Origin: Candidatus Dormibacteria bacterium
GTDB lineage: Bacteria; Chloroflexota; Dormibacteria; Aeolococcales; Aeolococcaceae
Direction: 5' to 3'
NCBI GenBank assembly: GCA_051002895.1
Contig: JBPCLW010000042.1
Location: 120,927 to 184,926, forward strand
Length of the DNA: 64,000 nucleotides
Shown in pieces: positions 9,220 to 59,726 of this stretch. Under the pieces are notes generated by a model. It worked only from the letters and a program-made list of their open reading frames with translations. It was not told the DNA's origin and searched no databases. The first letter of the stretch is position 1, and every line of letters begins with the position of its first letter. The position numbers and the translations under genes were made by a program.

Positions 9220-9330
9220 AGTTGGAGAATGTGTGCTCGGACGACGACGGTGCCGGCCGCATCCGCGTGGGTGAGACGGCGAGGCTGGCGATGATAGCCG
9301 GAGGTCGCGCGTCGATGCGCAGTCAGCTCG

Positions 9331-10202: not shown

Positions 10203-10379
10203 ATGAGTGGTGAATTCGACGAAGCCAGCGGAAAAGTGAAACAGGCGGCCGGTGATCTCACAGATGACCATGAGTTGAAGCACGAAGGCGACCGTCAGGA
10301 GGGTGCTGGGAAGGTCAAGCAGTTCGGAGACAAGGTCAAGGACAAGATCGACGACGCCGCGAACAAGGTCAAGGACTGA
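10203..10379 (+). CDS. csbD: CsbD-family general stress protein (58 aa; below the ORF-track cutoff)
   Basis: My own translation gives MSGEFDEASGKVKQAAGDLTDDHELKHEGDRQEGAGKVKQFGDKVKDKIDDAANKVKD. GGAGG RBS, and TATAAT about 40 nt upstream. Confidence 0.7.
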   Translation: MSGEFDEASGKVKQAAGDLTDDHELKHEGDRQEGAGKVKQFGDKVKDKIDDAANKVKD

Positions 10380-10466
10380 TCGCAGTCCGGGGCAGGAAAC
10401 GGGGCGGAGCCACGCAGATGCGCCGCCCCGGTTCCGCGTCTGGCCACTCTCAGCGACGGTGGCCCG

Positions 10467-11551: not shown

Positions 11552-11652
11552 GGCGACACCTCCTTGGGGGCGCGGCAACGGCGCCCCAGGGAGTTGTACA
11601 GGAATCGCGACGACCACCGCGTCAGATCACGGCGAGGCGCTAGGCTCCCTCC

Positions 11653-32863: not shown

Positions 32864-33889
32864 ATGGTGCTCAGAGGTCTCAACGCGACGCCGACGGCCG
32901 CGGGGCCGACCCCTCCTGCTACCCGGTTGAACCGACGGCTGGTGGGTGGCGCAGCTGCTGTGGTGATCCTCGCTGTGCTCGCCGGCCTCACCTACTCGTT
33001 AGCACTCAGCCTCACCGCCATGACCCCGGGTGCACTACAGGCAACCATCATGGCCATCGTGTCGTTTGCACTCGTCGCGACGATCTTTGCCGCTCTGGAA
33101 CACGTCTCTCCGGAACAGAGCGTCCGTCGCGAGTGGCGCCAGCGGGAGCGCAGGGCCGACGTGTGCTGGTGGTTCGTGGGCTATGGCTCACGCTTCGCTG
33201 CTGATATCACCACCTTCGTATGCATCGCGCTCATTATCCGCGTGCTCCCCGACCATCCGACTGCCATGGTCAACACGCAGCCCCTATGGCTGCAGATGAT
33301 CGAGGCGCTGCTGATCGGCGACTTCCTCCAGTACTGGGTGCATCGCTGCCTTCATAGTCGACGGCTCTGGTCGGTCCATGCCATCCATCATTCGCCCGAG
33401 GACTTGAACTGGCTCTCAGCGACGCGGATCCATCCGCTGGAAGTCATCCTCAAGGGGCCGATCGAAATGGCGCCGCTGTACTTCCTGGGGTTCTCGTCGG
33501 CGGCCACGCTGCCCTTGGTGGTGATCGTCCTAGGTCTCTACGAGCTCTTCCTGCACGCCAATGTCGGTTGGCGTTTCGGTGCGCTTCGATTCGTCATCGC
33601 CTCCCCAGCCTTCCATCGGTGGCATCACACTGCGGAGGTGGAGGGATTTGACAAGGACTTCGCTGGCCTGTTCCCGTTCTACGACCTTGCATTCGGGACA
33701 TACTTCCTGCCCGATCGGGCCTCCTCGGCCTACGGACTGGGCAGAGGGCAGCGCATGTCGTCGAGTTTCTGGCGCCAACTCATCAACCCGGGTCATTCGG
33801 CCGTGGATACCATCCCGACAGCGCGGAGGCGCTTGTCCAGTGTCGACAACATCGCAACGCTGACGCGGCCGACGTCAGCCGAGAGTTGA
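32864..33889 (+). CDS. fatty acid hydroxylase / sterol desaturase-family membrane di-iron enzyme
   Basis: Histidine boxes HRCLH, HAIHH and HRWHH, plus TM helices. Confidence 0.7.
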
Positions 33890-35908
33890 GAGGCCCCGCA
33901 TCAACTCGGCGAAATCCGCGAACGAGAGACTCTGCTCGGCGTCACTGAGAGCATGATCGGGGTCGGGATGGACCTCGATGAGCACGCCATGGGCGCCGAC
34001 AGCCCGCGCAGCCCGCGCCATGGGCGCGACGTAGGGACGGTATCCGGTGCCATGACTGGGATCCACGATGACCGGAAGATGAGTGCGCTCCCTGAGCACG
34101 CAGACCGCCGAGAGGTCCAGCGTGTTACGGGTGGCGCTCTCGAAGGTGCGAATACCCCGCTCACAGAGGATGACCTGCTGGTTACCGTGAGAAAGGATGT
34201 ATTCGGCGGCGCCGAGCCATTCCTCGATGGTGCTGGAGAGACCACGCTTCAGCAGTACCGGGCGGTCAACCTTGCCGAGTTCCCGGAGAAGGTCGAAGTT
34301 CTGCATGTTGCGAGCGCCGACCTGGAGAACGTCCACCTTCTCGGTCATGCGCGCCACCTGCTCCACCGCCATTACCTCGCTGATGATCGGCAGCCCATGA
34401 GCGCGCCCCGCAGCGTGCAGCATGTCCAGACCCTCCCACGCGCGGCCCTGGAATGCATACGGCGACGTCCGCGGCTTGAAGACCCCACCGCGGAGAATGT
34501 GGGCGCCGAGATCACGGACGGCGCGAGCGGTTGCATCCACCTGTTCAGCAGACTCGACCGCGCAGGGGCCGGCCATGACCACGAAGCCATCCCCCCCCAC
34601 CAGAGTGTTTCCGACACGGATGACCGTATCCTGGGGTCGCGTCGCGCGACTCGCCAATCGATAGTTCTTCGACGGCTTGACTGCGGGTGCCGACCGGGGG
34701 GAGGCGTTGGCGGCGACCGTGGCGGCGGCACGCGGATGCCCGCCGGCGGGTACCCGCCCCGTCTGGGGCTCGGCACTAGTGGCGGTCGCCGGGTAACTGC
34801 CGAGCACTTTGAGATGCAGGGCCGCACTGCGCACTTCATCAAGCGCGTCAAGCGTCGCCTGGTCGGCGATGTTACCCATGATGTCGATGAAGAACATGTA
34901 TTCCCACGGCCGTCCTGGTCGCGGTCGCGACTCCAGCTTGGTCATGGAGAGGCCGTTGCCGGAGAGAATCTCCAGGCAGCGGAGCAGTGCGCCCTGCTCA
35001 TGCCGGGTGCCGATGATGAGACTCGTTTTGCAGGGAACGCGAGGATCGATGGCTTCCGGACTCTGCGCGAGCACCACGAACCGGGTGTGGTTCTCCTCCT
35101 GGTTGGCCACCGATCGGCGCAGGATCACCAGCCCCGCTGCATCCGCTGCCTGGGCCGAGCCGATCGCCGCCTGGGCAGCGTCGCTCTGCTCGGCGACGAA
35201 TCGCATGGCGCCAGAGGTGTCGAAGTGAGGCACCGCAATGGCATGCGGTAGCGACTGGATGAATTCCGAGCACTGGTCGAGCGCCATGGGATGCGAGAGA
35301 ATGCGCTCCAGGGCTGAGAGCGGCACCTCGGCCACCCCCGCCAGGCAGTGATCAGCTTTCCAGGTCTCCTCGCCAACGATGGAGAGTTCTCGCTCGCGGA
35401 GCAGGTTGTAAACCTCGGTGATGCTTCCCGCGGTGGTGTTTTCGATGGGAGCGACGACGAGGTCGAGGTCGCCGCTCAGAAGAGCATCAACGGCAGCGGC
35501 AAAGCTCCGAAAGCCGGTGAGCGAACCGTCCAGCTGACGTCCCGACATGTACTTCTGGGCGGCGAGGTGACTGTAGGCAAACTCGACGCCCTGGAAGCCA
35601 ACCCGCACCTCTGCGCCGCGTGCGCCACGGAGGTCGGCGGCCTGGCGGATGACGGATTGGCTGAGCAGTTCCTCGAAGATGCGGCGCACCAACGGAACGG
35701 GAACACCGCGCGCACGCGCCGTCCGCTCCACGCCCTCCAACACCTCTCGCTCGCGCTGGTGATCGCGAATGGCCGCCACTGAGCCCTGCTTCTGAGCGGC
35801 AACAGAGGCGATGACGTTGAATCGCTCGGCGATGAGATCGACGAGTTGGGCGTCGACAGAGTCTAGGCGCTCCCGGAGTGCGGAGAGGTCGGCGACGGAG
35901 TCTTCCAC
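33875..35908 (-). CDS. tri-functional fusion: chorismate mutase (AroQ) / prephenate dehydratase + ACT / type I-beta DAHP synthase
   Basis: N-terminus [20 protein letters not shown] is chorismate mutase. [17 protein letters not shown]...ENTTAGSI plus a regulatory ACT region is prephenate dehydratase. A Pro/Ala-rich linker follows. C-terminus [10 protein letters not shown]...[18 protein letters not shown]...[10 protein letters not shown]...VDPSH is DAHP synthase I-beta. Confidence 0.8.
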
Positions 35909-37711: not shown

Positions 37712-40648
37712 TCAGCTGGCAGGATAGAGCACCGCGTCAGCCACCGCGAAGATCTTCATCCCGGCGTCGTCGAACTTGATGACGACCTCCTCGCCGGAGC
37801 GGGTCATCGTCGACTTGAGAACGGTGCCCGAGCCAAACTTCGGATGCTCGACACGGTCACCTTGCCCGTACCGCTGTGGCGCGCTCTCCACGGGATTGGC
37901 GCGAACAGCATGAGCGTGTACGGCATCGCGGACAGCCCCGGGGGTCCGTGGCGCCACCGGGCTCGGGCCACCGGGTCGTCGGCGCACGTCGAGAAGCTCG
38001 GCAGGGATCTCGGCAAGGAAACGCGAGGCCTCAGCCAGGTGGGCGGCGCCGTAGAGGTGGCGACGGTAGGCGTGCAGTAGGTAGAGGCGGCGCTGGGCAC
38101 GGGTGACCCCGACGTAGGTGAGGCGGCGCTCCTCGGCAATCCCCTCGTCGCCCTCCTCGAGCGCCCGGACATGGGGGAGCAGCCCTTCCTCAAGGCCCGC
38201 CATGAATACGATAGGAAATTCCAAGCCCTTCACCTGGTGCAGGGTGATGAGGGTGACCCCCTGGGCGTTGTCGTCCATGGTGTCGACGTCGCTGACCAGG
38301 GCGACGTTCTCGAGAAACTGCTGCAGCCCCTCGGGCGCGGCGATGTCGGCGTACTCGCCGGCCAGGCCGACGAGTTCCAGCACGTTATTCCAACGTTCCT
38401 CGCCCTCGGGGGTCCCGTCGCGCACCATCGACTGATAGCCGGTCTCGGCAAGCACCCGATCGACGAGCTGAGGCACGGGCAGCCGCGCCGCCAGGCCGCG
38501 AAGGCTCTCGACCAGTTCAAAGAAGTGGGTGAGCGACTGCACCGCCGCCGGGGTCATGCTGGCCTCACCGCTCAGGTGCTGGGTAGCTTCGAACGGCGAG
38601 ATCCTCTTGCGCCGGGCGACCTTCTCCAGCTCCCTCACCGTCTTGTCCCCGATCTTACGGCGGGGCACGTTGACAATCCGGCCGAAGGACACTGCGTCCC
38701 TGGGGTTGGCGAGCAGCCGCAGGTAGGCGAGAACGTCCTTGACCTCGCGGCGCTCGTAGAAACGCATGCCTCCCACCAACCGGTAGGGGATTCCGCGGCG
38801 CAGCAGCACCTCCTCGAAAGCGCGCGACTGGGCGTTGGTGCGATACAGAACCGCGCAATCGGCCAGCGAGGACGAGCCGCCCCCGATGAGGCTCTCGATC
38901 TCGCTGCAGATCGCCATCGCCTCCTCCTGCTCGTCGTACACCGTGATGAGGCGAACAGGCTCACCGCCGCTAGTCTCGGTCCACAGCCTCTTGGCGGCGC
39001 GCCCGGTGTTGCGACTGATGACAGCGTGGGCGGTGTCGAGAATCTGCTGGGTGGAGCGATAGTTCTGCTCCAGGGTGACCACCTGAGCGTCAGGATAGTC
39101 GCGGCGGAACTCGAGGATGTTGCGGATGTCCGCGCCGCGCCAGCGATAGATCGAGTTATGGGTAACGATGTCGTTGGCGATATAGTTGTGCGTGTTCTGC
39201 ACATCGATGTCATAGACATCGCCGTCATATGGCAGCCTTTCGACGCTCTCAACCTCGTCCCAGCCGCCATCAGCGTCAACCATGACCATGCCCGGATGGA
39301 CTGAGGCTGCGGGAACCAGCGGAAGCGAGTTCGAGCCGCAGTATCCAGCGAGGTTGTGACCGAGGCGGGCCACTTGGACGATGTGACCGCCCAGAGCAAC
39401 TCTCAAGCGCTCCGCGGTCGCGAGGACCGCCCCGAGGTCCTTCGCGGCTGTCTCGTGACGCCAGCTCTGGCCACCCTTCCGTGACGGCCGCACCGAGAGC
39501 CCCAGCCGGCGGATTGTCATCGCCCCCGTCTCGTCGTTGCCGACAACGGAGAGTCGGTGCATCGGCGTAGCGCCACGCTTGTCGCTACAGAGAGTGACCA
39601 CGATGTTGCGGCGACTGCTGTTGCGCGACTGTGGTCGGTGGTTGCGCTCAAGGCCAGGCCGGTACCCGCTGAAGTGCGTGTGCTCGGGCGTACTGACCAC
39701 CTCGCGACCGGCTGCGGTGCGGATCCTGACAACTTCCCCACGTGCCCGACGCCGGACGGAGCGCATGACCTGTGCCGGCCGGAAGGTTCCGCTACCTGCG
39801 GCAGACAGAACCGTGTCACCGGCCCGAATCGTCTCAATCGATCTCGTACTGCCGTCGGAGAGCGTCACGGCTGTCCCGGCCACCATGCACTGGTCATCGT
39901 CCCCCACCACCGTGAGGTTGCGATGCGACGCCGCCAGCAGCGACACCATCAGGTACTGGGAATGGTTGGTGTCCTGGTACTCGTCGACGAAGACGTGCCG
40001 CCAGCGCCGCTGATAGTGCTCGAGGACAGGGGGCACATCGCGGAGCAGTTGCACCGGGCGCATGAGCAGATCATCGAAGTCGAGCGCAGCGGCGGCGCTC
40101 ATCTCCGCCTCGTAGGCGCGGTACGCCTTGGCGACCTCGGCCTCGTAGGATCCCAGAGCCTTGGCCTGGTACTCGGCGGCGGTCAGCATCTCGTTCTTCG
40201 CGGCACTGACTTGGTGGACGACCTTGGCTGCGGGGAAGCGCTTCTCATCGAGACCAATCGATTGGATGGCTCGGCGCATCGCCGACACCCGATCAGCCTC
40301 GTCGTAGATCGAGAACGTCGAGGGGATGCCGATGGCATCACCGTCGCGGCGGAGGATGCGGGCACCGATGGCGTGGAAGGTACCCAGCCACATCCCCGCC
40401 ACCGATTCACCCAAGAGTTCCTCGACCCGGCTGCGCATCTCCCGCGCCGCCTTGTTGGTGAACGTCACGGCAACGATCTCGTTGGAGCGGACGCCGCGCG
40501 CGCCGATGACGTGAGCGATTCGGTGGGTGAGCACCCGCGTCTTGCCACTTCCAGCGCCGGCGAAGATGAGCAGCGGCCCATCAGGAGCCTCAACCGCCTC
40601 GCGCTGGGCAGGATTCAGGGTGGCGAGCAGTGGATCGATGACGGTCAC
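37712..40648 (-). CDS. pcrA: ATP-dependent DNA helicase PcrA/UvrD, interrupted by an in-frame intein
   Basis: GAGSGKT (motif I), DEYQDTN (motif II), VVGDDDQ then intein then SIYRWRGA (motif III), plus downstream UvrD motifs. The extein is ~733 aa once the 245-aa intein is removed. Start set at GTG 40648, just after the stop of the upstream C-N hydrolase; the listed ORF start at 41032 is an over-extension. Confidence 0.9.
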   Translation of the reverse strand: MTVIDPLLATLNPAQREAVEAPDGPLLIFAGAGSGKTRVLTHRIAHVIGARGVRSNEIVAVTFTNKAAREMRSRVEELLGESVAGMWLGTFHAIGARILRRDGDAIGIPSTFSIYDEADRVSAMRRAIQSIGLDEKRFPAAKVVHQVSAAKNEMLTAAEYQAKALGSYEAEVAKAYRAYEAEMSAAAALDFDDLLMRPVQLLRDVPPVLEHYQRRWRHVFVDEYQDTNHSQYLMVSLLAASHRNLTVVGDDDQCMVAGTAVTLSDGSTRSIETIRAGDTVLSAAGSGTFRPAQVMRSVRRRARGEVVRIRTAAGREVVSTPEHTHFSGYRPGLERNHRPQSRNSSRRNIVVTLCSDKRGATPMHRLSVVGNDETGAMTIRRLGLSVRPSRKGGQSWRHETAAKDLGAVLATAERLRVALGGHIVQVARLGHNLAGYCGSNSLPLVPAASVHPGMVMVDADGGWDEVESVERLPYDGDVYDIDVQNTHNYIANDIVTHNSIYRWRGADIRNILEFRRDYPDAQVVTLEQNYRSTQQILDTAHAVISRNTGRAAKRLWTETSGGEPVRLITVYDEQEEAMAICSEIESLIGGGSSSLADCAVLYRTNAQSRAFEEVLLRRGIPYRLVGGMRFYERREVKDVLAYLRLLANPRDAVSFGRIVNVPRRKIGDKTVRELEKVARRKRISPFEATQHLSGEASMTPAAVQSLTHFFELVESLRGLAARLPVPQLVDRVLAETGYQSMVRDGTPEGEERWNNVLELVGLAGEYADIAAPEGLQQFLENVALVSDVDTMDDNAQGVTLITLHQVKGLEFPIVFMAGLEEGLLPHVRALEEGDEGIAEERRLTYVGVTRAQRRLYLLHAYRRHLYGAAHLAEASRFLAEIPAELLDVRRRPGGPSPVAPRTPGAVRDAVHAHAVRANPVESAPQRYGQGDRVEHPKFGSGTVLKSTMTRSGEEVVIKFDDAGMKIFAVADAVLYPAS
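39155..39889 (-). mobile_element. intein (245 aa) inserted in PcrA helicase motif III
   Basis: Begins with Cys (CMVAGTAVTLSDG). TPEHTHF matches intein block B. The terminal ...VYDIDVQNTHNYIANDIVTHN has His-Asn at the C-terminus. The +1 extein residue is Ser. No LAGLIDADG or HNH endonuclease motif is evident. Confidence 0.8.
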
Positions 40649-40655: not shown

Positions 40656-41531
40656 TCACGAGGCCGGTGCCACTCCTCGGTGTGGCGCGTCGACCAGCTC
40701 AGCGCGGTAGGCGCCCTCACGACGGTCATCGAGAAGGTGGTTGCGCGGGGTGCGCTGGCGTGCCGCCTCCACGGAGTCGAGGTCGACATCGGCGACGAGC
40801 AGCTCCGGCTCGGACGCGCTCGCGGGACCGGCAACCGGCCAGCCGTCGGCCCCGACGATGAGCGAGTTACCAAGGAAGCTCGTGCCCCGCTCAGTGCCCA
40901 CCCGATCAGCGCAGGCGACCACAGTGCCGTTCGCCGCCGCGGCCGCGATGGCCATGTAGTTGCCCTGGATGTACCCCTGAGCGTCGTAGACAGTGCGCTT
41001 GAACGATGCCACCCAGTTCGTCGGGACCGCAATGATCTCCGCGCCCGCGAGAGCGAGGGCGCGCGCCACCTCGGGAAACCAGATATCGAAGCAGATCATC
41101 ATCCCCACGCGACCGAATGGGAGATCGACGATCGGGAGGCCGTCGCCCGCTCGGAACCATGACCGTTCGTCGTGGAAGAGTTGGACCTTGCGGTACGTGG
41201 CAACATGGCCCGACGGCCCCACCAGGATTGCGGAGTTGAAGCGGCCGTCGCCACCGCGCTCATTGAGCCCGCTGATGACGTGGAGGTCGTAGGCCCGGGC
41301 AACGGCGAGGAGAGCATCGGTGAAGGGCCCGTCGATGGACTCGCTGAGCTGCTCCGCCTCCGCCTCCGACTGAAAGACATAGCCGCTCGAAGCGAGCTCA
41401 GGCAGTACCACGAGTTGGGCTCCGGCCACTCCAGCACGGTCGGCCCAATGCACCGCCGCAGCACGGTTGGCCTCCAGATCCCCGACGGCGAGTTGGTACT
41501 GGGCGGCGGCGATACGGACGGGTCGAGCCAT
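40656..41531 (-). CDS. carbon-nitrogen hydrolase (nitrilase superfamily) protein
   Basis: VVLPELASSGY places the catalytic Glu; MMICFDIWFPE places the catalytic Cys; the Lys region is present; 291 aa. Confidence 0.85.
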   Translation of the reverse strand: MARPVRIAAAQYQLAVGDLEANRAAAVHWADRAGVAGAQLVVLPELASSGYVFQSEAEAEQLSESIDGPFTDALLAVARAYDLHVISGLNERGGDGRFNSAILVGPSGHVATYRKVQLFHDERSWFRAGDGLPIVDLPFGRVGMMICFDIWFPEVARALALAGAEIIAVPTNWVASFKRTVYDAQGYIQGNYMAIAAAAANGTVVACADRVGTERGTSFLGNSLIVGADGWPVAGPASASEPELLVADVDLDSVEAARQRTPRNHLLDDRREGAYRAELVDAPHRGVAPAS

Positions 41532-41722
41532 GGATCGAGACTAACAGGACGGAAATGGTGGCCGGTTACAACCAGGCCGCGCCCATGCTCGGCTCAGTGG
41601 TGATATGCAGCGGCCCCGCTGGGGAGAGCAGGAATAGGAACGCCTCGCGCACCCCCGGGATGATCTTCGCCGTGACACCCTGAGACCACAGCGCACGGGA
41701 CCTTCCTCTTGCCAACCCGACG

Positions 41723-44407
41723 CTACCCGAGTCTGACAGCCTCACCATCTTCTACGGCAGCGCGCTCGCCATTCTGCGGCAGTGACCGAATGCGGCGGAG
41801 CACCGCGAACGGGGTCTGTTCATCCGTCTGACCCAGAGGGTTGTCGGCGAAGAGCGCCCCCAACGCGGGACGATCGATGCTGCGGCTGGTCCCGAGGATG
41901 TCTGCCGCGAGGTCATTGGTGTCGACGACGGCGACGTCGACGTCCACTCCGCTGCGTTTCAGCAGCATGCCAGCGACCTCCCCCGCAACGCGATCGGCGT
42001 CCTCGGGCGCCTTCGAGGCATGGGTGTTGTACGGCGGGATGGTGTGCGCTGTCGGTCCATCGATAGCCGCTACATTCGGGCCGGCGACGCGGTAGAACAC
42101 GCCCCGCACCCCCAAGGGGCGGGTGACCGCAGCAGCGGCGGCGGCGGCGATGATGCGGGGAACGCCCGCTTCCTCGATGGCAAGTTGCATGGTCTGGGGA
42201 CGGCCAAGGCCGATACCGATGGGTACTCGACTCACAAACCTCGAGAGCAGGCGAGCCAGAGGCGTCACCGCAATCTCGTCCATGGGCAGAGAGCGGCCCT
42301 GGGTGATCGACACCACCTTCTCGCTGAGGGCAACGACGTCCCCATCCTCGAGCTGGACGCCGCGTTCAGCCAGACCTCGGAGCGCATCGATCAAGGTGCG
42401 GCCCAGGTCGTCGCCGGGCCTCACCAGCGACGACCGCACAGGAATTCGTGCCCACGTCTGCGCGCCACGTTGGATGAGCAGATGGCGTCCGGGATTGGGC
42501 GACACAGCTGCAAGCAGAGGTTGCGCGGTGGTACCAGGGGCGGCGGCACGGTCACCGCGACCAACAAAGCCGAGATGCCAGCTTGAGTCATCCAGAGAGC
42601 GTGCCTGGGAGTCAATGTACAAACGCATCCAGATTTCGACATTGACGGCGCGCCAGAAGAACATCGACTCCTCGCTGCCGCCGGCGCAGGCAACGCGAAA
42701 TGCGTCGGCAACGCGCTCGGCATTCCAGAAAGGACGGGAGGCGAAACTGGGCGAGCGCATCAGCGATTGGATGGCGGGGCGCTGCTGCCGGAACCAGCGA
42801 AACTCCGGCGTGGTGAAGCCGATCTTCTTGCGCCGCGTCCGCACCCTTTCCGGGAGAAGCCCGCGGAACCCGTCACGGAGGATGGCACGGCTCCAGCCGC
42901 CACCAACCAGAGCCGATGCGGGCAGGCGAAGGATCCATTCCACGAGTTCCTGATCCAGGAAGGGCAGCCGCGACTCCACGGAGTGCGCCATCGAGTTGCG
43001 ATCCTCATAGCGCAGCAACGAGGGCAGGCTGAAGGTCTGGAGATCCTGGAGCAGCCGCTTTTTCAGGTCGTCCTGTATGCGTGGATCACAGGGGGTGCGC
43101 AGTTCACGCGTCCAGGTCTTGCGGAGCAGCGAAGGGACGCGCACTCCGCGCCGCCGCTCCCAGAGCCGGCGTCGTACCAGGGGACCGACGGTATCGAGAG
43201 CCTTGGCGGACTCCCGAGCAAAGTCAACGTAGCGCTTGTCGCGGAGGAGCTGGCGCAGGTAGACGTACTGGTACGGGACGTAGCCGGCGAGGAGCTCGTC
43301 ACCCGCCTGACCGTCGAGCAGCACGGTGACCTTCTCACTCGCCGCCCGCATCACCGACCACATCGCGTACGGCGCTGTACTGACCATCGGCTCCTCGGCG
43401 AACCAGATCCAAGCCTCGAGTTCCTCGATCCACTGTTCCGAGGTCGGCTTCACCCACGTTGGATCGGCCGCGGTCACCGCCAGCACCGCGTCCATGTACG
43501 GCTTCTCATCGATGGGATCACCGGGGAAAATCGCGGAGAACGTCTTCAGTCGGCCTCCCAGTGACGTCGAATCGGGAACCCTCGCCGCGAGCAGCTGGTC
43601 CATGACGCAAACGATCGATGAGGAGTCGAGCCCACCGGAGAGACACGTTCCCACGGGTACGTCAGCGACGAGCCGTCGCTCCACTGCCTTGGTGAAGAGG
43701 CGGCGGAACTCCGCCGGATCGGGATCGGCGTCCTCGTTGAGGACGGGATCCCAGTATCGATGCACGCTGACGCCGCCACCATCAACGACGGCGTAGGCCG
43801 CCGCCGGCACCTGCTGGATGCCGGCGAAAAATGTCAGGTCGTTGTGGTCGTAGAGTCCCCAGGCCAGGTACTCGTAGAGTTGCTGCTCGTCGACGCGGCG
43901 CGGGAACGTCGCATCCTGAAGGATTGACTTGATCTCCGACGCGAAGACCACACGGTCGTCGTGCTGCGCATAGAAGAGCGGCTTGATGCCGAAGTGGTCA
44001 CGGCAGAGGATGAGGCGCGGTTCACTTCCGCGCTCGTCGAGCAGCGCCAGGGCCCACATTCCGTTGAAGCGCGAAAAGGCGGTTGGTCCCCAGGCGGCGA
44101 AGGCGTGGAGCGCAACTTCGGTGTCAGAACTGGTCTGAAAGGTGCGGCCCTGCGCCTCGAGATCAGCGCGCAACTCGCGATAGTTGTAGATCTCGCCGTT
44201 GTAGATGATGGTGAGCCGGCCGCCATCGGTCGAGATCGGCTGGTCACCCGTGGCCAGGTCGATGATCGAGAGCCGGCGAAAGCCCAGACTGGCCGCGGAA
44301 GTCTCGTGGAAGCCATCACCGTTGGGCCCGCGATGCAGCTGCGCAGCAGTCATGTCGCGAAGGAGCGCGCTATCGCGACGGCCGTAGAACCCGCAGATCC
44401 CGCACAT
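41723..44407 (-). CDS. glutamine-hydrolysing asparagine-synthetase-type amidotransferase fused to a C-terminal CofE-like (F420-0:gamma-glutamyl ligase family) domain
   Basis: N-terminal MCGICG Ntn-glutaminase nucleophile; SGGLDSS PP-loop in the synthetase domain. C-terminal ~270 aa contains VRPGDDLGRTLIDAL...LEDGDVVALSEKVVSITQGR and VDVAVVDTND, matching CofE/FbiB N-domain blocks. Confidence 0.8.
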   Translation of the reverse strand: MCGICGFYGRRDSALLRDMTAAQLHRGPNGDGFHETSAASLGFRRLSIIDLATGDQPISTDGGRLTIIYNGEIYNYRELRADLEAQGRTFQTSSDTEVALHAFAAWGPTAFSRFNGMWALALLDERGSEPRLILCRDHFGIKPLFYAQHDDRVVFASEIKSILQDATFPRRVDEQQLYEYLAWGLYDHNDLTFFAGIQQVPAAAYAVVDGGGVSVHRYWDPVLNEDADPDPAEFRRLFTKAVERRLVADVPVGTCLSGGLDSSSIVCVMDQLLAARVPDSTSLGGRLKTFSAIFPGDPIDEKPYMDAVLAVTAADPTWVKPTSEQWIEELEAWIWFAEEPMVSTAPYAMWSVMRAASEKVTVLLDGQAGDELLAGYVPYQYVYLRQLLRDKRYVDFARESAKALDTVGPLVRRRLWERRRGVRVPSLLRKTWTRELRTPCDPRIQDDLKKRLLQDLQTFSLPSLLRYEDRNSMAHSVESRLPFLDQELVEWILRLPASALVGGGWSRAILRDGFRGLLPERVRTRRKKIGFTTPEFRWFRQQRPAIQSLMRSPSFASRPFWNAERVADAFRVACAGGSEESMFFWRAVNVEIWMRLYIDSQARSLDDSSWHLGFVGRGDRAAAPGTTAQPLLAAVSPNPGRHLLIQRGAQTWARIPVRSSLVRPGDDLGRTLIDALRGLAERGVQLEDGDVVALSEKVVSITQGRSLPMDEIAVTPLARLLSRFVSRVPIGIGLGRPQTMQLAIEEAGVPRIIAAAAAAAVTRPLGVRGVFYRVAGPNVAAIDGPTAHTIPPYNTHASKAPEDADRVAGEVAGMLLKRSGVDVDVAVVDTNDLAADILGTSRSIDRPALGALFADNPLGQTDEQTPFAVLRRIRSLPQNGERAAVEDGEAVRLG

Positions 44408-44497: not shown

Positions 44498-46165
44498 TTA
44501 GAAGTCCATGTCGTCCATGCCACCCATGCCGCCCATACCGCCGCCACCGTGCGAGTGGCCCCCCCCGGCAGCCGCATCGTCGCCGGCGTCGGGCTCGGGT
44601 GCGTCGGCGACGAGCGCAGAGGTGGTGAGCACCATGGTGGCGATGGAGATGGCGCTGGTCACCGCCGTGGTCACCACCTTGGTGGGGTCGATGATCCCCG
44701 CCTTGACGAGGTCGGTGTACTCCTCGGTGGCGGCATTGAACCCGTGATCACCGGTGAGGTCGTCGACGCGGCGGGCGACGACGCCGCCCTCGAGACCTGC
44801 ATTGTCCGCGATGACCCGAACGGGATCCTCGAGCGCCCGACGAACGATCCTCACACCAACCGCCTGGTCTCCATCGAGCTTCAGCGCATCGAGAGCGGAG
44901 CGGGCCCGAAGCAGGGCAACGCCACCGCCGGCGACGACCCCATCCGCGAGCGCAGCGCGGGTTGCATGCAGGGCATCCTCGACACGGGCCTTGCGCTCCT
45001 TCATGGCCACCTCGGTGGCTGCGCCGACTGACACCACGGCGATGCCGCCGCTGAGACGAGCGAGACGCTCCTGGAGCTTCTCCTTGTCCCAGTCGGACTC
45101 GGTCTCCTCGATCTGGCCACGAATCTCGGCGCAACGCGCCTCGATCTGCGTCTTGGTGCCGGTGCCACCGACGATGGTGGTCTCCTCCTTGGTGACGGTG
45201 ATGCGCTTGGCCTTGCCGAGATGCTCGGGACGTACCGCCTCCAGGCTGAGCCCGACCTCCTCGGTGATGACTGTCCCACCGGTGAGCGTCGCCAGGTCCT
45301 GGAGCATGGCCTTCCGGCGATCCCCGAAGCCCGGAGCCTTTACCGCCACTGCGGTGAAGCTGCCGCGCATACGGTTGACAACCAGGGTTGCCAGCGCCTC
45401 GGCGGTGACATCCTCAGCAACGATGAGAAGCGGAGTCCGCTCCTTGACGACGAGCTCCAGAGAGGGCAGCAGATCCTTGACCGCGCTGATCTTGGCGTCA
45501 GTCATGAGGATGGCGGCGTTCTCGAGCTCGGCAACCATCTCCTTCTGGTCTGTGACCAGGTAGGCGGAGATGTAGCCGCGGTCGAACTGCATGCCCTCAA
45601 CAACCTCGACATCGGTCTCGATGCCATCGCTCGACTCGATGGTGACAACACCATCGCGGCCGACCTTGGCGAAGGCCTGGGCAAGGAGGCGACCGATCTC
45701 AGGGTCACCGGAACTCACCGTGGCAACGCGCTCGATGTCGTCGTCACCCTTGATGGGATGCGACTGCTTGCGCACCGCGGCGACAACCGCCTGCAGCGCC
45801 GCGAGCATGCCCTGACGGATCTCGATCGATGAGGCTCCGGCGGTGAGTTGCCGCAGGCCCTCGCGAATCATGGCCCGAGCCAGGACCGTCGCCGTCGTGG
45901 TGCCATCACCAGCGACGTCGTTGGTCTTGATCGCAACCTCCTTGAGCAACTGCGCGCCCATATTCTCGAAGTGATCGGCGAACTCAAGCTCCCGGGCGAT
46001 CGTCACCCCGTCGTTGATGATCAGGGGCGCCCCGAACTTCTTGTCGAGAACGACAGTGCGCCCGCGGGGGCCGAGCGTGACGGCAACGGCGTCGGCAACC
46101 TGGTCGACACCGTGCTGAAGCAGATGGCGAGCATCGTGATCGAAGCGAAGTTGTTTGGCGGGCAT
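44498..46165 (-). CDS. groEL: chaperonin GroEL
   Basis: [12 protein letters not shown] motif and C-terminal GGM repeats ([14 protein letters not shown]); 555 aa. Confidence 0.95.
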
Positions 46166-46638: not shown

Positions 46639-47322
46639 TCACCCGAGCGAGGTCTCCACCCAGACACAGGCAGCGACCGCCCACGGCACCGCCAGTTGAC
46701 GGTCGCCTCGCCGCACGCTGAGGGGATCACCCGTGGCCACCACCTCGACGACGGCTCCAGGAACCAGCCCGAGGGTGTGCAGGGAGTCGAGCAACTGCGG
46801 GGCGTCGTGCTCCGCGACCTCGGAGACCCGCACCACCGTGGCCCCTGCCCCCTCGGAGAGGGCGGCGAGGCTGACCAGGGCGGCGGGATTCTGGCCGCGA
46901 CCGGGGATGTGATTGCCGTGGGGACACGTCGCCGGCTTCCCAAGGTGGGCATCGAGTCGCTCGAGGACGAGATCAGAGAGCCCCTGGGCGAGGGCCTCGG
47001 CTTCCTCGTCTGCGGTGGCCCAGTCGAGACCGAGAACATCGACGAGCCAGCGCTCGAGAATCCGATGCCGGCGCACGATGCGCGAGGCAGCGGCGTGCCC
47101 GGCATCGGTGAGACGCACGCTGCGATCGCTCTCCACCTCGAGCCAGCCGTCACGGACGAGCCGCTGCAGGGTGACGCTGACGGTGGGGGCGCTCACCCCC
47201 ATCCATTCCGCGATCCGGCCGGGTCGAGCCACTCCCCCCTCATGGACGATGTAGTAGATCGTCTCGAGGTAGCGTTGCGCTGTGTCGCTCAGGGGCGCCT
47301 GAGTGGTGGAATCGAGCGCCAT
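46639..47322 (-). CDS. ideR: DtxR/IdeR-family metal-dependent transcriptional repressor with C-terminal SH3-like (FeoA) domain
   Basis: YLETIYYIVHEGG...RIAEWMGVSAPTVSVTLQRL HTH, metal-site residues, C-terminal SH3-like domain; trimmed to MALDST. Confidence 0.85.
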   Translation of the reverse strand: MALDSTTQAPLSDTAQRYLETIYYIVHEGGVARPGRIAEWMGVSAPTVSVTLQRLVRDGWLEVESDRSVRLTDAGHAAASRIVRRHRILERWLVDVLGLDWATADEEAEALAQGLSDLVLERLDAHLGKPATCPHGNHIPGRGQNPAALVSLAALSEGAGATVVRVSEVAEHDAPQLLDSLHTLGLVPGAVVEVVATGDPLSVRRGDRQLAVPWAVAACVWVETSLG

Positions 47323-47347
47323 GTCCCGATGGTACGCGTCGTCGGGC

Positions 47348-47551
47348 TCAGTCCTGGACGGCGTCGCGGAAGCGCAGGAGGATCTCCCCGGCCTCGCCGA
47401 TGGCCATCTCGTCGTGGGCGTCGAGCGGTTGCAAGGACCGGAGTTGTTCCATCGCTGCCTCAACGTCAGCGAGAGCGGGTAGTTCGAGACGGCGCTCGAC
47501 CGGAAGGAGCCCGTTGGCGATGCGGCGGGCCTCACGAGCGGTGTCGCTCAC
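47348..47551 (-). CDS. small hypothetical protein (67 aa)
   Basis: Listed ORF sitting between ideR and the upstream hypothetical gene; no motif. Confidence 0.25.
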   Translation of the reverse strand: MSDTAREARRIANGLLPVERRLELPALADVEAAMEQLRSLQPLDAHDEMAIGEAGEILLRFRDAVQD

Positions 47552-48691: not shown

Positions 48692-49714
48692 TCACGCGTA
48701 CTCGTCGAGACTCGGGTCCACATCGAACGCGGCGTCCGCGCCGTGGCACCGGAATCGGTGCCACCCCGCTGCGGCGATCATGGCCGCATTGTCGGTGCAG
48801 AGGGACATAGGGGGAATGCTCAGTCTGAGTCCGGAGAATCGCCGCTCGACGGCAGAACGGAGTGCGAGGTTCGCGGCAACGCCGCCGACCACCGCAAGGC
48901 TGACGGCGCCAGTGCGTTCCACCGCAGCCTCGGCGCCGTCGACGAGCTGGGCCACGGCGGCGGCCTGAAAACTCGCGGCCAAGTCGGCACGAACCCGACG
49001 GTCGGCGGGAGCGCCCCCGGCGTCGACGGCATCCGCCCCGAGATCGCGAATCGCGTAGCGCAGCGCCGTCTTCAGCCCACTGAAGGAGAAGGCATCCTCG
49101 AGACGCGTCCGTGGCAGGGGGAATCGCGCCTCATCACCCTCGGCGGCAACTCGCTCCACTGCGGGCCCACCCGGGAACCCCAGGCCGAGCATGCGCGCCG
49201 CCTTGTCGAAGGCCTCGCCGGCGGCGTCGTCGCGCGTGCTCGCCAGACGAACGGCGTCACCATGGGTTCGCAACTCCACGGTGTCGGTGTGACCGCCGCT
49301 GACCACCAGCGCGACGTAGGGAGGTTCCAGCTTGGGGTCGGCGAGCCAGGCTGAGTACACGTGGCCTGCCATGTGGGAAACGCCGCAAATCGGCAGACCT
49401 CGGACCGCCGCCACCGCCTGGGCATAGGCGGTGCCGACGACAAGGCAACCGATGAGTCCAGGGCCCCGCGTCACTGCCACCGCATCGATCCCCTCCCATC
49501 CACCGACGTGTTGAAGTGCCTCGTCCACGACGGGGGCGATGCATTCCAGATGGGCCCGCGCGGCGAGCTCGGGGACAACGCCTCCGAACCGCTCGTGGAG
49601 ACTGATTTGCGAAGCGACCACCGAGCTGACGACCTCGCGACCGTCACGGAGGACGGCGGCCGCGGTCTCGTCGCAGGAGGTCTCGATGGCGAGCAGCGTC
49701 CCCGGCGAGCGCAT
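48692..49714 (-). CDS. tsaD: tRNA N6-adenosine threonylcarbamoyltransferase
   Basis: LAIETSCDETAAAV...GVSHMAGH blocks; the listed ORF has an 80-aa N-terminal over-extension. Confidence 0.9.
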   Translation of the reverse strand: MRSPGTLLAIETSCDETAAAVLRDGREVVSSVVASQISLHERFGGVVPELAARAHLECIAPVVDEALQHVGGWEGIDAVAVTRGPGLIGCLVVGTAYAQAVAAVRGLPICGVSHMAGHVYSAWLADPKLEPPYVALVVSGGHTDTVELRTHGDAVRLASTRDDAAGEAFDKAARMLGLGFPGGPAVERVAAEGDEARFPLPRTRLEDAFSFSGLKTALRYAIRDLGADAVDAGGAPADRRVRADLAASFQAAAVAQLVDGAEAAVERTGAVSLAVVGGVAANLALRSAVERRFSGLRLSIPPMSLCTDNAAMIAAAGWHRFRCHGADAAFDVDPSLDEYA

Positions 49715-49725
49715 GAGGTTCGTGC

Positions 49726-51291
49726 CTAGCAGAAGGTGGGCGATCCGAAAGCGGCGGGGACCAGCAGGACGTACGACTCCGGTTCGACGACGCGGTTCTG
49801 CCAGTAAACGCCACCGGTGAATGTCCGTGCCACCCGGTACCCGGGAAGGCAGACCAGCTTCTGGGTCGACGACTTGACGCCCACCACGATGTACTCGGGA
49901 CGCGTCGCTATTAACGTCGTCGGATCGTCGACGAGACCGGAGCTCGTCGACCACCGCCAGTACGACGGCCGATGACCCTGATTGAAGTTCATGAAGATAT
50001 TGTCGGGAAAGTACGGGAGGATGGCGACCAGGCTGTAGTTGAGCGCCGCTCCCCGGCGGTGGTCAAGCCCGTTGTCCTTGATGTACTGGGCGACGTCCCG
50101 ACTGGCCGAGTAGTTGTTGCCCGCGTCGTAGCGGATGCTGTTGATCGTCCAGTTGCCCTGGATGAGCAAAGTGATAACCATTGCCGCCGTGATCGCCAGC
50201 GCCGGCCGGTGGGACGGGGATGGAGTGGCAGCCGGCGCGACGCGATCGCGCTCGAAGGCGATCCAGAGGGCGAAGACCCAAACCAAAAAGAGGATGCCCT
50301 CATGCCACACGTTGAGGTACTTCAACGAGAAGAGCAGCAGCAGCGCCGTGGTGGGGAGGATGAAGACGAGGAGTGATCGCGTTCGCTGCAACCACCAGGC
50401 GGTGACGGCCAGGACCGCCACCGACACCACATTCACCGCTATCGCATGGGTGAGGTTGAGAGGGGCGGTCCGCGCTAGATGGAAGAGGTCGAAGTTCCAG
50501 CCTGCAGCGGCGGCGAGGTCGCCCGCCGGACGCATGGTGAACGCCGCTCCCGCCGCGACCACGCCGAACCCCACCAGAGCGATGATGTGGCGGCGCCGAA
50601 GCGCCGGTTGCAGCTCCCCCCAACGTGTGCGGAGGTCGAGCAGGTGGACGAGCTGCAGCGAACCCGCGATCAGAAGACCATGCAGGCTGACGGTGCTGAG
50701 CAGAGCCAGGAGCGCGCTCCAGCGCCAGGGGTGTTCCAGCTTGCGAGAGTGGACATGAGCCGCCAGGAACAGAATCGGAGCGAGCAGGCAATAGCTCCGC
50801 GCCACCACCCCGTACTGATAGAGGATGAAGAAGGAAAAAGGGAACAGCACCCGCACCAGCGCGGGGAACGGGGCGCGACGGACAAAGATAAACACCCCAA
50901 CCACCGAGATGAGCGCGGCAATCACGTTGATGGAGATGTACGGCAGGTTCAGCTTCGCGGCGGGCATGAGCAGCAGGTGCCAGAGCGGCGGCGAGCCCTC
51001 GTAACGCATCCTTGTGGTCAGCAGATCCAGCGGTGACGCGTCGCGGGCAATCAGCCACGCTTGCGCCTCGTCGAACCAGGGCTCGTGCAGGGGCAGCATC
51101 GCCGTCAGCACTCCGGCGTACATGGCGACAACGCCGTACTCCCACCAGCGCGTCCAGCGCCGCCGCGGTGGCGGCGCCACCAGCGGTTCAGCGAGACTCG
51201 CACCAGAGGCTGCGTGGCCCGGAACAACGGTGACCTCCGGCGACGCAGCGTTCTCCTCCAGTGTCCTGGGGGAAAGCAACGCACTCAGCAT
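49726..51291 (-). CDS. polytopic membrane protein, putative GT-C-fold glycosyltransferase
   Basis: About 10 TM helices; FDE motif in the first extracytoplasmic loop (HEPWFDEAQAWLIARD); soluble C-terminal domain; 521 aa. Confidence 0.6.
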   Translation of the reverse strand: MLSALLSPRTLEENAASPEVTVVPGHAASGASLAEPLVAPPPRRRWTRWWEYGVVAMYAGVLTAMLPLHEPWFDEAQAWLIARDASPLDLLTTRMRYEGSPPLWHLLLMPAAKLNLPYISINVIAALISVVGVFIFVRRAPFPALVRVLFPFSFFILYQYGVVARSYCLLAPILFLAAHVHSRKLEHPWRWSALLALLSTVSLHGLLIAGSLQLVHLLDLRTRWGELQPALRRRHIIALVGFGVVAAGAAFTMRPAGDLAAAAGWNFDLFHLARTAPLNLTHAIAVNVVSVAVLAVTAWWLQRTRSLLVFILPTTALLLLFSLKYLNVWHEGILFLVWVFALWIAFERDRVAPAATPSPSHRPALAITAAMVITLLIQGNWTINSIRYDAGNNYSASRDVAQYIKDNGLDHRRGAALNYSLVAILPYFPDNIFMNFNQGHRPSYWRWSTSSGLVDDPTTLIATRPEYIVVGVKSSTQKLVCLPGYRVARTFTGGVYWQNRVVEPESYVLLVPAAFGSPTFC

Positions 51292-51330: not shown

Positions 51331-52911
51331 TCAGCGGGCGGCGCTGACGGGGGATGCGACGGGGCGCGCCTCGGCCGACACCTCGTGATAGTCCTCCTCG
51401 ACGTTGACATCCCAGACGTCGTGGTGCGTGCCCTCAAGAATGTTCTGCACCGTCAGCTGGGCGGTGAACATCGAGTGGTCCTGGTTGTTGTAGCGGAACA
51501 TCCCATTGCGCCCCACCGGATGCAGATTCGGCGTATTCGCCGCGATCCAGTGGCGCATGGTTTCGATATTGCGCTTGTAGGATGCGTCGTAATACGGGTA
51601 CGCCTTGGGCATGCGGACAACAAACCCACGCTCGACCTGCGCGGACTTCACCAGCCCCAGTTCGCGAAGTTCCCGCTTCGCCTGGACGATGAGATCCTCG
51701 TCCGAACGATTCCACGTGGCATCGCCGACGGTCACGAAGTACTCCAGCCCCAGGCAAGTCTTTCCCTCTTTCACGAGATACGGTGACCAGGAGCCGAAGT
51801 TTTGGATGCGACCCACCTCCACCTCGGGCGAGTGCACGTAGATCCAGTTGTCAGGAAACCCGGCGCTCTCGGGGACGACGAGGGCGACGGTGAGGAAGTC
51901 CCGATACTTCAGCGCGTGCGCCGCCGCCAGCACCTCGGACGGAGGCGGAGGGTCGAGCGAGCTGACCAGCGACGAGAACGGCATCGAGGAGATGAATTCA
52001 TCGCCTGTGTGAAGATGCTCGCTACCGATGTCAGTGCGCGTGCCGTGGGGAGCACCGGCACCGGGACCGTAACCGCCCGTCACCACCGTGGTGACGCTGG
52101 TGACGCCCTTGCCCTGCTCCCAGTGGAGAGTTCGGACCTTCTCTTCGAGAATGATCCTGCCCGTACCCTCGGTGATCTTGCGAGCGGCCGCCTCCCACAT
52201 CATTCCTGGGCCGTACTTGGGGTACTGGAACTCCTCGATGAGGGAGGTGATCTGTTTCCCCGTCCGCTTCGGCCTGATCGCGTTGGTGATGGCTGAGAGG
52301 AGGGAGAGATCCTTGATGCGCTGCGCCGCCCAATCGGCCTCCAACTCGCTGCCGGGGACGCCCCACAACTTCTGGGTGTAGTTCCTGAAGAAGTGGTTGT
52401 AGAGCCGCCATCCGAACCGGGCGGCCACCCAGCCCTCAAACTTGGTCTGATCCTTGGGAGGATGGACCCGCGCCCACATGTACGACAGCACGCAGCGGAT
52501 GGCTTCGATGACGCCGAGATTCTTGAGCGCGTTCGAGGCCTTGAGAGGGTAGTCGTACAGCTTGCCGTTGTAGAAGATGCGGCTCATCCGCGGTCGCATC
52601 AGAAAGTCCTCGTCGGGCAGGATCTCATGCCAGAGCGCCTCCACCTCGGGCACCTTGGTGAAGAACCGGTGACCACCGATGTCGAAGCGCCACCCCTCCC
52701 GCTCAGCCGTGCGGCTGATGCCTCCCACAATGGCATCACCCTCCAGCACGGTGCAGGGAACGCCTGCCTGGGAGAGTTTGTAGGCGGCCGTCAGGCCGGC
52801 GGGTCCGGCTCCGATCACCACGACCTTCGGCGGCGACCCCGGGGTTCTGGGTGTGGCCGGACGGGAAGCCTTCGCCGCCTCGTCTCTTGCCCGCGCACTG
52901 CCCCCCACGAC
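51331..52911 (-). CDS. UDP-galactopyranose mutase-family FAD flavoenzyme (long form, ~520 aa)
   Basis: VVVIGAGPAGL Rossmann motif; IVGGISRTAEREGWRFDIGGHRFFT aligns with UGM HIGGNAY...GAHLFHT; YTQKLWG and AYPYYD blocks. Start uncertain; the Ser/Pro-rich N-terminus of the listed ORF is probably spurious. Confidence 0.7.
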   Translation of the reverse strand, partial: VVGGSARARDEAAKASRPATPRTPGSPPKVVVIGAGPAGLTAAYKLSQAGVPCTVLEGDAIVGGISRTAEREGWRFDIGGHRFFTKVPEVEALWHEILPDEDFLMRPRMSRIFYNGKLYDYPLKASNALKNLGVIEAIRCVLSYMWARVHPPKDQTKFEGWVAARFGWRLYNHFFRNYTQKLWGVPGSELEADWAAQRIKDLSLLSAITNAIRPKRTGKQITSLIEEFQYPKYGPGMMWEAAARKITEGTGRIILEEKVRTLHWEQGKGVTSVTTVVTGGYGPGAGAPHGTRTDIGSEHLHTGDEFISSMPFSSLVSSLDPPPPSEVLAAAHALKYRDFLTVALVVPESAGFPDNWIYVHSPEVEVGRIQNFGSWSPYLVKEGKTCLGLEYFVTVGDATWNRSDEDLIVQAKRELRELGLVKSAQVERGFVVRMPKAYPYYDASYKRNIETMRHWIAANTPNLHPVGRNGMFRYNNQDHSMFTAQLTVQNILEGTHHDVWDVNVEEDYHEVSAEARPVASPVSAAR

Positions 52912-53029
52912 TCCGAAGTATAGAGTCCCAGGCTTCGACGGCGTGGACGACCGACAGGACGGGGATGTGAGAGAGGCGATCAACGCCCCTGCCGGCAGGG
53001 CTGTGCGGCTCGGCCAGGTGACCGCCGTG

Positions 53030-59661: not shown

Positions 59662-59726
59662 GGGCTCTCCGGGGCCGGGCAGGGCCCGGACCGCCAGGTC
59701 ACCTGTGGATTGCCTAGGCAACACCT

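Follow-up and report, generated by a model that had tools for sequence, protein, structure and literature searches.

The 894 amino acid fusion gene

The DNA considered here is a 64,000 nucleotide (nt) stretch (called "the window" below; 66% G+C) of contig JBPCLW010000042.1 from a Candidatus Dormibacteria bacterium, and our subject is an 894 amino acid (aa) protein encoded on its minus strand by a single open reading frame (894 codons plus stop, 41723–44407), in which an AsnB-type amidotransferase is fused to a C-terminal domain with the fold of CofE, the F420-0:L-glutamate ligase. The parts are themselves of known kinds; their combination, and the non-F420 CofE-like family to which the C-terminal domain belongs, are undescribed. 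The frame has no internal stop codons, and its G+C content at third codon positions (0.67–0.87 in all 300-nt blocks) is coding-like throughout and typical of the genes here. The protein is 100% identical to one from a Candidatus Dormibacteria metagenome-assembled genome (MAG; protein P0001), and its full-length AlphaFold2 model has a predicted local distance difference test (pLDDT) value of 86.4 and a predicted template modelling score of 0.88.

All of the following features lie on the minus strand. The protein begins with a class-II (N-terminal nucleophile, Ntn) glutaminase domain with Cys2 as nucleophile (aa 1–200, 43808–44407), which matches Pfam GATase_7 (148 bits, aa 44–163) and GATase_6 (124 bits) and starts with MCGICG (aa 1–6, 44390–44407). 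The AsnB synthetase domain that follows (aa 233–595, 42623–43711; Asn_synthase, 247 bits) was aligned to structures 1CT9, 6GQ3 and 7YLZ; it carries the PP-loop SGGLDSS (aa 257–263, 43619–43639) and a family-specific DGQAGDE (43295–43315) where E. coli AsnB has SGEGSDE. A conserved helical linker of 45 residues (aa 596–640, 42488–42622; LDxxSYxxGFVxRGD ... PNxGRHL) is well ordered and packed in the model (pLDDT 91–95), and in this region F614, G618, D619, N638, G640 and H642 are invariant or nearly so in 60 aligned fusions. The CofE-fold domain (aa 641–873, 41789–42487) matches Pfam F420_ligase (PF01996) with 50.6 bits (cut-off 25) over aa 657–831 and profile positions 2–150 of 218, and contains RPGDDLG (aa 663–669), SEKVVSITQGR (aa 695–705, 42293–42325), GIGLG..TMQLAIEE (42170–42217), GVFYRVAG (42080–42103), AAIDGPT (42050–42070), VAVVDTND (aa 825–832, 41912–41935) and DNPLGQTDEQTP (41810–41845). 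The protein ends in a low-confidence tail (aa 874–894, 41726–41788; pLDDT <50 for aa 879–894) that is unconserved in both of our alignments (A1 and A2). Every motif quoted in an initial annotation of this reading frame was found, and the three Pfam families it named (PF01996, PF00733 and PF13537) all score above their gathering thresholds.

Neither misassembly nor a frameshift accounts for the fusion, because the same four Pfam domains are present in all 120 of the best database matches (58–100% identity) taken from our first protein search, because a Thermoleophilia member, used as the query of a second search, gave ~100 further clusters with the same architecture (more than 200 overall), and because 38 of the 90 loci that we fetched encode AsnB and CofE-like domains in one open frame (in 8 others the two are adjacent or truncated, and 44 have a CofE-like gene alone). 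It is thus one gene, as had been supposed, and not two split by a stop or frameshift. Fusion-bearing MAGs are labelled Dormibacterota, Acidimicrobiia, Thermoleophilia, Solirubrobacteraceae, Chloroflexota and Bacillota, and none of the ~240 clusters listed comes from a cultured host. The initial annotation did not recognise the architecture as a common one; it recurs across at least four phyla and is unfamiliar in the sense of being uncharacterised, since literature searches gave no relevant paper on an AsnB–CofE fusion and the public names of the fusions are all "asparagine synthase (glutamine-hydrolysing)". Two Thermoleophilia loci (L006 and L007) have separate genes, AsnB then CofE-like, that overlap by 8 nt and look like a genuine two-gene version, and AsnB and the CofE-like domain are a classical Rosetta-stone pair. 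The split genes of three other loci (L002, L003 and L008) were rejected as true two-gene forms, since they appear to come from frameshifted long-read assemblies with the same synteny.

The amidotransferase half

Judged by its conserved residues, the AsnB half is an intact glutamine-hydrolysing AsnB-type enzyme, with a Cys2 glutaminase and a PP-loop adenylating synthetase, as the initial annotation had concluded. Across the 60 fusions R44/R45, N70-G71-E72 and D95 are invariant, C2 is nearly invariant and the PP-loop is conserved; K528 aligns with K449 of E. coli AsnB, and at 420 bits the match to the asparagine synthase model TIGR01536 is above the cut-off of 267. The more specialised AsnB-family models all remain below their cut-offs: NF006949 (AsnB proper) gives 247 of 499 bits and the PEP-CTERM amidotransferase model 346 of 817, while TIGR03104 (AsnO of the N-acetylglutaminylglutamine amide (NAGGN) pathway) aligns end to end over aa 1–570 with 284.8 bits against 570.1. 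The lasso cyclase model NF033535 (299.9 bits, cut-off 525) and the macrolactam cyclase model NF033561 (87.3 bits, cut-off 300) likewise fall short, in agreement with the earlier view that this is no lasso-cyclase type protein; an intact Cys2 glutaminase also argues against membership of that group.

The Ser-Gly-Glu of true asparagine synthetases (E. coli AsnB and human ASNS) is replaced. In all 46 AsnB genes that are linked to a CofE-like domain the position of E. coli E348 is Gln and that of S346 is Asp or Asn, giving [DN]GQ. We take E348 of E. coli AsnB to be required for formation of beta-aspartyl-AMP, and on this basis we regard the AsnB half as an active glutamine-dependent amidotransferase that probably has an acceptor other than aspartate. 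Among proteins of solved structure, the hydroxyamidotransferase TsnB9 (7YLZ, 200 bits) is the nearest in sequence, and E. coli AsnB and human ASNS come behind it. From TsnB9 we know that this AsnB branch acts on carboxylates other than that of aspartate; it differs from the fusion in being a secondary-metabolite enzyme that keeps Glu at the E348 position (SGEAADE) and has no extra domain.

The CofE-fold domain

The CofE fold of the C-terminal domain is found by Foldseek (E = 1e-9) and by hhalign (98.4%, E = 4.6e-14), so that this part of the initial annotation stands together with its PF01996 match, whereas its close comparison with CofE and FbiB-N does not hold at the level of the CofE equivalog models: TIGR01916 gives 26.3 of 181 bits, NF009809 18.9 of 274 and NF009810 19.3 of 304, and stand-alone members of the family score 16–32 bits on the CofE models. 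Identity to CofE/FbiB-N (PDB 2PHN and 7ULD) is 16–23%, and there is no dedicated NCBIfam model for the family. The GDD, the Lys of S-E-K, (E/Q)GR and the Asp of (G/A)ID are common to the family and CofE, as are PxDxD, the Asp of D-x-N-D after the central strand (aligned with D150 of the CofE from Archaeoglobus fulgidus, hereafter Af-CofE) and E-Q-T-P...R, and these shared motifs plausibly form a nucleotide/metal site; in CofE, whose ligation of L-glutamate depends on GTP and Mn, the metal and nucleotide ligands are reportedly D109, D150, T151 and E208. The conserved blocks of the family are SEKxVAITQGR, GIGLG..TMQLAI, GVFYRVAG, AAIDGPT, PPYN, IIDAND and DNPLGQ..EQTP, of which GIGLG..TMQLAI, GVFYRVAG, PPYN and DNPLGQ set it apart from CofE.

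Three segments of CofE are gone from the domain: FGRPWR, the six residues right after the Asp (which contain Af-CofE G153–C155); about 18 residues of a hairpin/helix segment; and the C-terminal tail, 23 residues in CofE, that carries the equivalent of R234. The total loss is ~26 residues for the FGRPWR segment and the swapped hairpin, plus the tail, and hhalign places gaps of 6, 11 and 7 residues at the F420-binding elements. The same is true of stand-alone members, in 40 of which the Asp and the GQ motif are 26–27 residues apart, as compared with 56 in cofE, and in which a median of 3 residues follow the conserved Arg, as compared with 23–24 in cofE (a frameshifted Natrinema copy was left out of the reference cofE alignment). 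The contacts of CofE with the F420 chromophore are G153–C155, R234 of the partner subunit, F92 and the long domain-swapped hairpin (PMC10861534). Because the deleted segments are contacts named there, we conclude from the alignments that the F420 pocket of CofE is gone in this family, and that the domain is a separate, undescribed branch of the CofE superfamily.

A CofE-family enzyme with a non-F420 acceptor has a precedent in FolC2 (Chlamydia CT611), a folylglutamate synthase in organisms without F420 (PMC1971073, PMC4161248), which is a CofE-fold ligase acting on a non-F420 carboxylate, as we propose for the domain of the fusion. FolC2 differs in having no AsnB fusion; its model TIGR04132 gives ≤16 bits on the CofE-fold family against a cut-off of 350, and no folate genes were seen near genes of the family.

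Occurrence of the CofE-fold family

When one genome per species was scanned, 574 or more were found to encode relatives of the C-terminal domain. With an E ≤ 1e-30 limit, an exhaustive profile search gave 378 clusters (50% identity), and of the 150 best about one in three is an AsnB fusion or a fragment of one. Identity of the domain across phyla is ~45–50%. The stand-alone proteins are ~235 aa long (225–270 aa; 40–53% identity) and are found in Armatimonadota, Bacteroidales (Prevotellaceae, Muribaculaceae and Paludibacteraceae), Clostridia, WOR-3, Thermotogota and Chloroflexota, and in the Saccharibacteria, Staskawiczbacteria and Kaiserbacteria of the Candidate Phyla Radiation (CPR). To our knowledge none of these groups except Chloroflexota is known to produce F420. 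A plasmid collection contained no homologue of the domain, and PADLOC recognised neither the fusion nor the stand-alone proteins, nor the nitrilase encoded next to the fusion (below).

Some occurrences are unusual in other ways. A phage collection gave only two homologues, both on unannotated "Bacteriophage sp." contigs of human faecal virome origin (MT835656.1, 5930–6664, 41% identity; MT838774.1, 2173–2925, 26%; H16 and H17 in our set), which could be phage-borne copies or bacterial contamination. Rare fusions join the CofE-fold domain to a Sapep/PepV M20 dipeptidase (P0253), a GNAT acetyltransferase (P0243, and L078 2126–3286), an adenylate kinase (P0266), a RelA/SpoT-type HD domain (P0244) or PlsY (P0271); all except the GNAT fusion are single clusters and could be gene-calling artefacts. 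The stand-alone gene of Limnocylindria-like Chloroflexota is embedded in the rRNA operon, in the 16S–23S spacer between tRNA-Ile(GAT) and tRNA-Ala(TGC) (L001 8001–8783, L060 784–1497, L070 1081–1803 and L062 104–844), an unusual place for a protein gene. The order in L001 is 16S (6110–7615), tRNA-Ile (7895–7971), the CofE-fold gene, tRNA-Ala (8842–8917), 23S (9312–12386) and 5S; in another locus (L075) the homologue ends ~570 bp before a 23S gene.

Genes adjoining the fusion and its relatives

In the window the fusion gene sits at the end of a minus-strand housekeeping block that contains glmS, acpS-nnr, alr, tsaB, rimI, tsaD, a DtxR/IdeR regulator, groES, groEL and the fusion, and is followed by a nitrilase gene, pcrA (with an intein), an ATP-binding cassette transporter gene and, further on, ligA and uvrC. 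The alanine racemase gene alr (58561–59859, minus strand; Ala_racemase_N and _C domains) is ~14 kb upstream of the fusion in this block. Rfam, promoter and terminator scans around the fusion gene gave no usable feature, only a weak hairpin at the groEL stop.

The initial annotation placed the nitrilase upstream of the fusion and saw the two as a module. Both genes are read from the minus strand, which puts the nitrilase gene (40656–41531; 291 aa) downstream (3'), and the gene upstream of the fusion is groEL (44498–46165, minus strand). The nitrilase has a CN_hydrolase match (PF00795, 170 bits) and the Glu-Lys-Cys catalytic triad (E45/K115/C147), and all NCBIfam equivalogs are below cut-off. 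It was rejected as a partner of the fusion on its conservation and its coupling to pcrA: 7 nt lie between its stop and the GTG start of pcrA at 40648, it is found near the fusion in Dormibacterota loci only, usually with alr between the two, and the closest relatives (L009–L013 and L090) lack it and have a GGDEF/EAL gene in its place.

A 297-aa gene that JGI calls on the minus strand between fusion and nitrilase was likewise rejected as a candidate, being an antisense call over alr in most loci. In L002 (9029–9925), for example, the public call is a minus-strand 298-aa protein without a Pfam match; it appears to be antisense, since the plus strand there encodes alanine racemase, as does the plus strand of the equivalent stretch in L015, L017–L019, L021, L022, L025, L027, L030 and L034. 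A similar minus-strand 297-aa call in L089 (9673–10566) has no alr match.

Elsewhere, alr is the most frequent companion. In tblastn comparisons it lies directly 3' of the fusion on the same strand in 14 loci, at a distance of 23–81 nt (274 nt in L014), and in a fifteenth (L098) alr begins 8 nt before the fusion gene ends; four of these 15 loci are outside the groEL context. Other envelope genes recur. In two Chloroflexi a Wzx/MurJ-like flippase gene precedes the fusion and a class-A penicillin-binding protein (PBP1a) gene follows it, and in Thermoleophilia the order yggT–AsnB–CofE-like–divIVA lies within the dcw (division/cell-wall) cluster. The stand-alone gene has murJ behind it in a Saccharibacteria genome and, with a GNAT gene in between, in two Staskawiczbacteria genomes; glmS precedes the CofE-fold gene in a Clostridiales MAG, and yfhO follows it in two lineages. 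PlsC-type acyltransferase genes precede the gene in Acidimicrobiales, to which the PlsY fusion mentioned above may be added. We count five to seven wall genes as immediate neighbours where about one would be expected by chance, a rough estimate that assumes perhaps 25 independent lineages and ~2% wall-related genes.

Possible function

Judged by their motifs, two intact-looking amide-forming modules are present within one conserved polypeptide. The AsnB half would adenylate a carboxylate and then amidate it with glutamine-derived ammonia; the CofE-like half would retain the chemistry of CofE, using a nucleoside triphosphate to turn a carboxylate into an acyl phosphate for coupling to an amine or amino acid, with an acceptor other than F420. 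Our preferred reading, a tentative one to which we give somewhat less than an even chance, is that the protein is bifunctional and makes amides at the free carboxylates of a precursor of the peptidoglycan type. A cell-envelope precursor bearing free carboxylates would be the most likely acceptor because of the recurring neighbours alr, murJ, class-A penicillin-binding protein, the division/cell-wall cluster, glmS and yfhO. The first candidate would be the gamma-glutamyl-containing stem peptide of peptidoglycan, at the D-Glu alpha-carboxyl and/or the meso-diaminopimelate (mDAP) epsilon-carboxyl. This peptide is attractive because it has a gamma-linked glutamate with a free alpha-carboxyl, chemically like the tails of F420 and folate, because AsnB homologues that are labelled asparagine synthase amidate its mDAP carboxyl (PMC8554201), and because the commonest operon partner is alr, the source of D-Ala. 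The two sites might act in sequence on one residue (ligation, then amidation) or on two different carboxylates.

By analogy, such an enzyme would cap or extend stem-peptide carboxylates much as LtsA, AsnB1 and MurT–GatD do. The mDAP-amidating AsnB proteins (C. glutamicum LtsA, L. plantarum AsnB1 and the B. subtilis and Listeria AsnB) are glutamine-dependent and linked to the cell wall, as the fusion may be; they are stand-alone proteins of ~630 aa that have a characteristic extra loop (PMC8554201) and no CofE-fold domain. MurT–GatD, which amidates the D-iso-glutamate of lipid II with an acyl-phosphate ligase module and a glutaminase (PMC12632261), comes nearest in function to the mechanism that we propose, a two-part capping of a stem-peptide carboxylate. 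Its folds are unrelated to those of the fusion (a Mur-ligase domain and a class-I glutamine amidotransferase), and it has one activating site where the fusion has two, the PP-loop and the CofE-like site.

A more specific version of this proposal, which we think distinctly doubtful, is that the CofE-fold proteins are a new family of nucleotide-dependent cell-wall amide ligases that add an amine or amino acid (for example D-Ala from the co-transcribed alr, or Gly, or Glu) to a stem-peptide carboxylate, after which the AsnB half amidates the product. Substituents on the D-Glu alpha-carboxyl of peptidoglycan have reportedly long been described. If this version is correct, enzymes would be at hand for these long-known and genetically unassigned substituents. 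If the preferred reading holds, a fold so far tied to the synthesis of F420 and folate tails would gain a third and far wider use, extending to minimal-genome CPR bacteria and gut Bacteroidales, and hundreds of genes would carry a wrong label, "F420-0:gamma-glutamyl ligase" or "asparagine synthase". The fusion would also be a candidate enzyme for envelope or peptidoglycan carboxylate modifications that affect charge, lysozyme resistance and innate-immune recognition, and a rare case of acyl-adenylate and acyl-phosphate activation chemistries in one protein. Even without a role in the wall, the family is conserved across phyla, has no function on record and is readily tested.

Several observations weigh against a cell-wall role. 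The count of wall-gene neighbours is a rough tally rather than a statistical test, and the alr signal may in part be inherited synteny, because alr, glmS and groESL are members of a housekeeping block that is old and conserved in Terrabacteria. Clustering of the neighbours of the 44 stand-alone loci gave no gene that is shared across phyla and no universal partner, and there are non-wall contexts as well: gltX upstream in two Bacillota loci, ABC-2 exporters in Thermoleophilia, pdxT, a rhamnosidase and the rRNA spacer. The AsnB half exceeds the cut-off of the asparagine synthase model, and we infer the catalytic competence of the CofE-like domain from its conserved motifs. We regard the fusion as a well-founded, testable lead and not as a demonstrated new system.

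The neighbouring GNAT genes suggest a different kind of acceptor, namely that the ligase half builds a (gamma-)glutamyl or dipeptide-like small molecule which the AsnB half amidates, by analogy with the NAGGN pathway (AsnO plus Ngg), in which an AsnB-type amidotransferase works with an amide-bond ligase and a GNAT, the CofE fold taking the place of the ATP-grasp ligase of that pathway. We consider this unlikely. The AsnO model aligns end to end with the AsnB half, yet its score is half of the cut-off, and no Ngg-type gene is present in any annotated neighbourhood, nor is an Ngg or M42 hydrolase partner found at the fusion. A GNAT gene is directly upstream of the fusion in eight Dormibacterota loci and downstream of the stand-alone gene in L045, and GNAT domains are fused to the CofE-fold domain in L078 and P0243; however, the GNAT Pfam subfamilies differ between lineages and the fusion gene in the window has no adjoining GNAT. 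The dipeptidase fusion (P0253) would also fit a dipeptide-like product, but the rare fusions are one cluster each (the GNAT one also in L078) and may be mis-called genes. The upstream gltX of the two Bacillota loci and the desiccation-prone soil in which the host lineage lives are in keeping with a glutamyl osmolyte, whereas the stand-alone genes in tiny CPR genomes favour a core function over an osmolyte one.

Alternatively, the protein could be a true asparagine synthetase whose CofE-fold appendage is non-catalytic and serves regulation, oligomerisation or localisation. The TIGR01536 score, the wholly intact glutaminase and PP-loop residues and the uniform public annotations agree with this, and since CofE and AsnB are both dimers an extra domain may simply add interface. 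We nonetheless think it quite unlikely: TIGR01536 also catches amidotransferases that do not make asparagine, such as the mDAP-amidating AsnB (PMC8554201), the E348 position is always Gln and the S346 position Asp or Asn, and the nearest solved relative, TsnB9, is not an asparagine synthetase. The appendage, moreover, keeps the motifs that it shares with CofE at ~50% identity across phyla and exists independently, which would not be expected of a passive module.

That the target is a protein or the translation apparatus, as in a RimK-like glutamylation and amidation at a ribosomal protein's C-terminus, is in our opinion very unlikely. It is suggested by the stand-alone gene in the 16S–23S spacer of four Chloroflexota genomes and near the 23S gene in L075, but this location is limited to one lineage (plus L075); by the upstream GNAT, which most resembles RimL, but weakly (26–29 bits, far under the cut-off); and by the tsaB, rimI and tsaD genes of the window, but these are part of the inherited housekeeping block. 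The stand-alone gene is also beside frr in a Saccharibacteria locus. The only known precedents for a CofE fold or an AsnB acting on proteins are lasso cyclases, and the fusion is not one (300 of 525 bits).

Finally, the role proposed in the initial annotation, in which F420-n or another oligo-gamma-glutamyl tail is bound by the CofE-like domain, amidated by the AsnB half and edited by the nitrilase, appears extremely improbable, since, even though PF01996 scores above its cut-off, the fold is that of CofE and the host phyla Actinomycetota and Chloroflexota include F420 producers (PMC8498797), the F420-contacting elements are deleted (PMC10861534), the score is far under the CofE equivalog cut-off, the family abounds in CPR, Bacteroidales and Clostridia, conservation of the nitrilase does not follow that of the fusion, and the survey of neighbourhoods for F420 genes found no cof or fbi gene among the annotated genes of the window or the annotated neighbours in the fetched loci and no canonical cofE in the window or the loci fetched up to that check, whereas true cofE genes (L092–L094) are flanked by npdG, cofD and cofH.

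Other features of the window

The pcrA gene downstream of the nitrilase (37712–40648, minus strand) encodes a PcrA/UvrD helicase with an intein of 245 aa (Cys ... His-Asn) at 39155–39889, between VGDDDQ and SIYRWRGA; some relatives (L002) share the intein, and it is not in L003, L089 or L090. Two further minus-strand reading frames are fusions: one of 677 aa (33875–35908) combines chorismate mutase, prephenate dehydratase and 3-deoxy-D-arabino-heptulosonate 7-phosphate (DAHP) synthase, a triple aromatic-pathway fusion, and one of 423 aa (59727–60998), which adjoins alr and glmS, combines a holo-acyl carrier protein synthase (ACPS) and an NAD(P)HX dehydratase (Carb_kinase).

The longest reading frames of two genes in the housekeeping block probably begin too early, because their N-terminal extensions are long in comparison with the homologues in L003 and L089. 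That of the DtxR/IdeR regulator (46639–47535, minus strand) is 298 aa long with domains from aa 82, where the homologues are 229–230 aa, and that of TsaD (48692–49954, minus strand) is 420 aa long with its domain from aa 107, where the homologues are 341 aa. The gap between tsaD and rimI holds an EpsG-like membrane protein gene (a weak match; 49726–51291, minus strand), a flavin amine-oxidase-like gene (51331–53154, minus strand) and a PMT_2 glycosyltransferase gene (52853–54559, plus strand), the last two of which overlap by ~300 nt on opposite strands; these envelope-type genes break up the usual tsaB–rimI–tsaD run.

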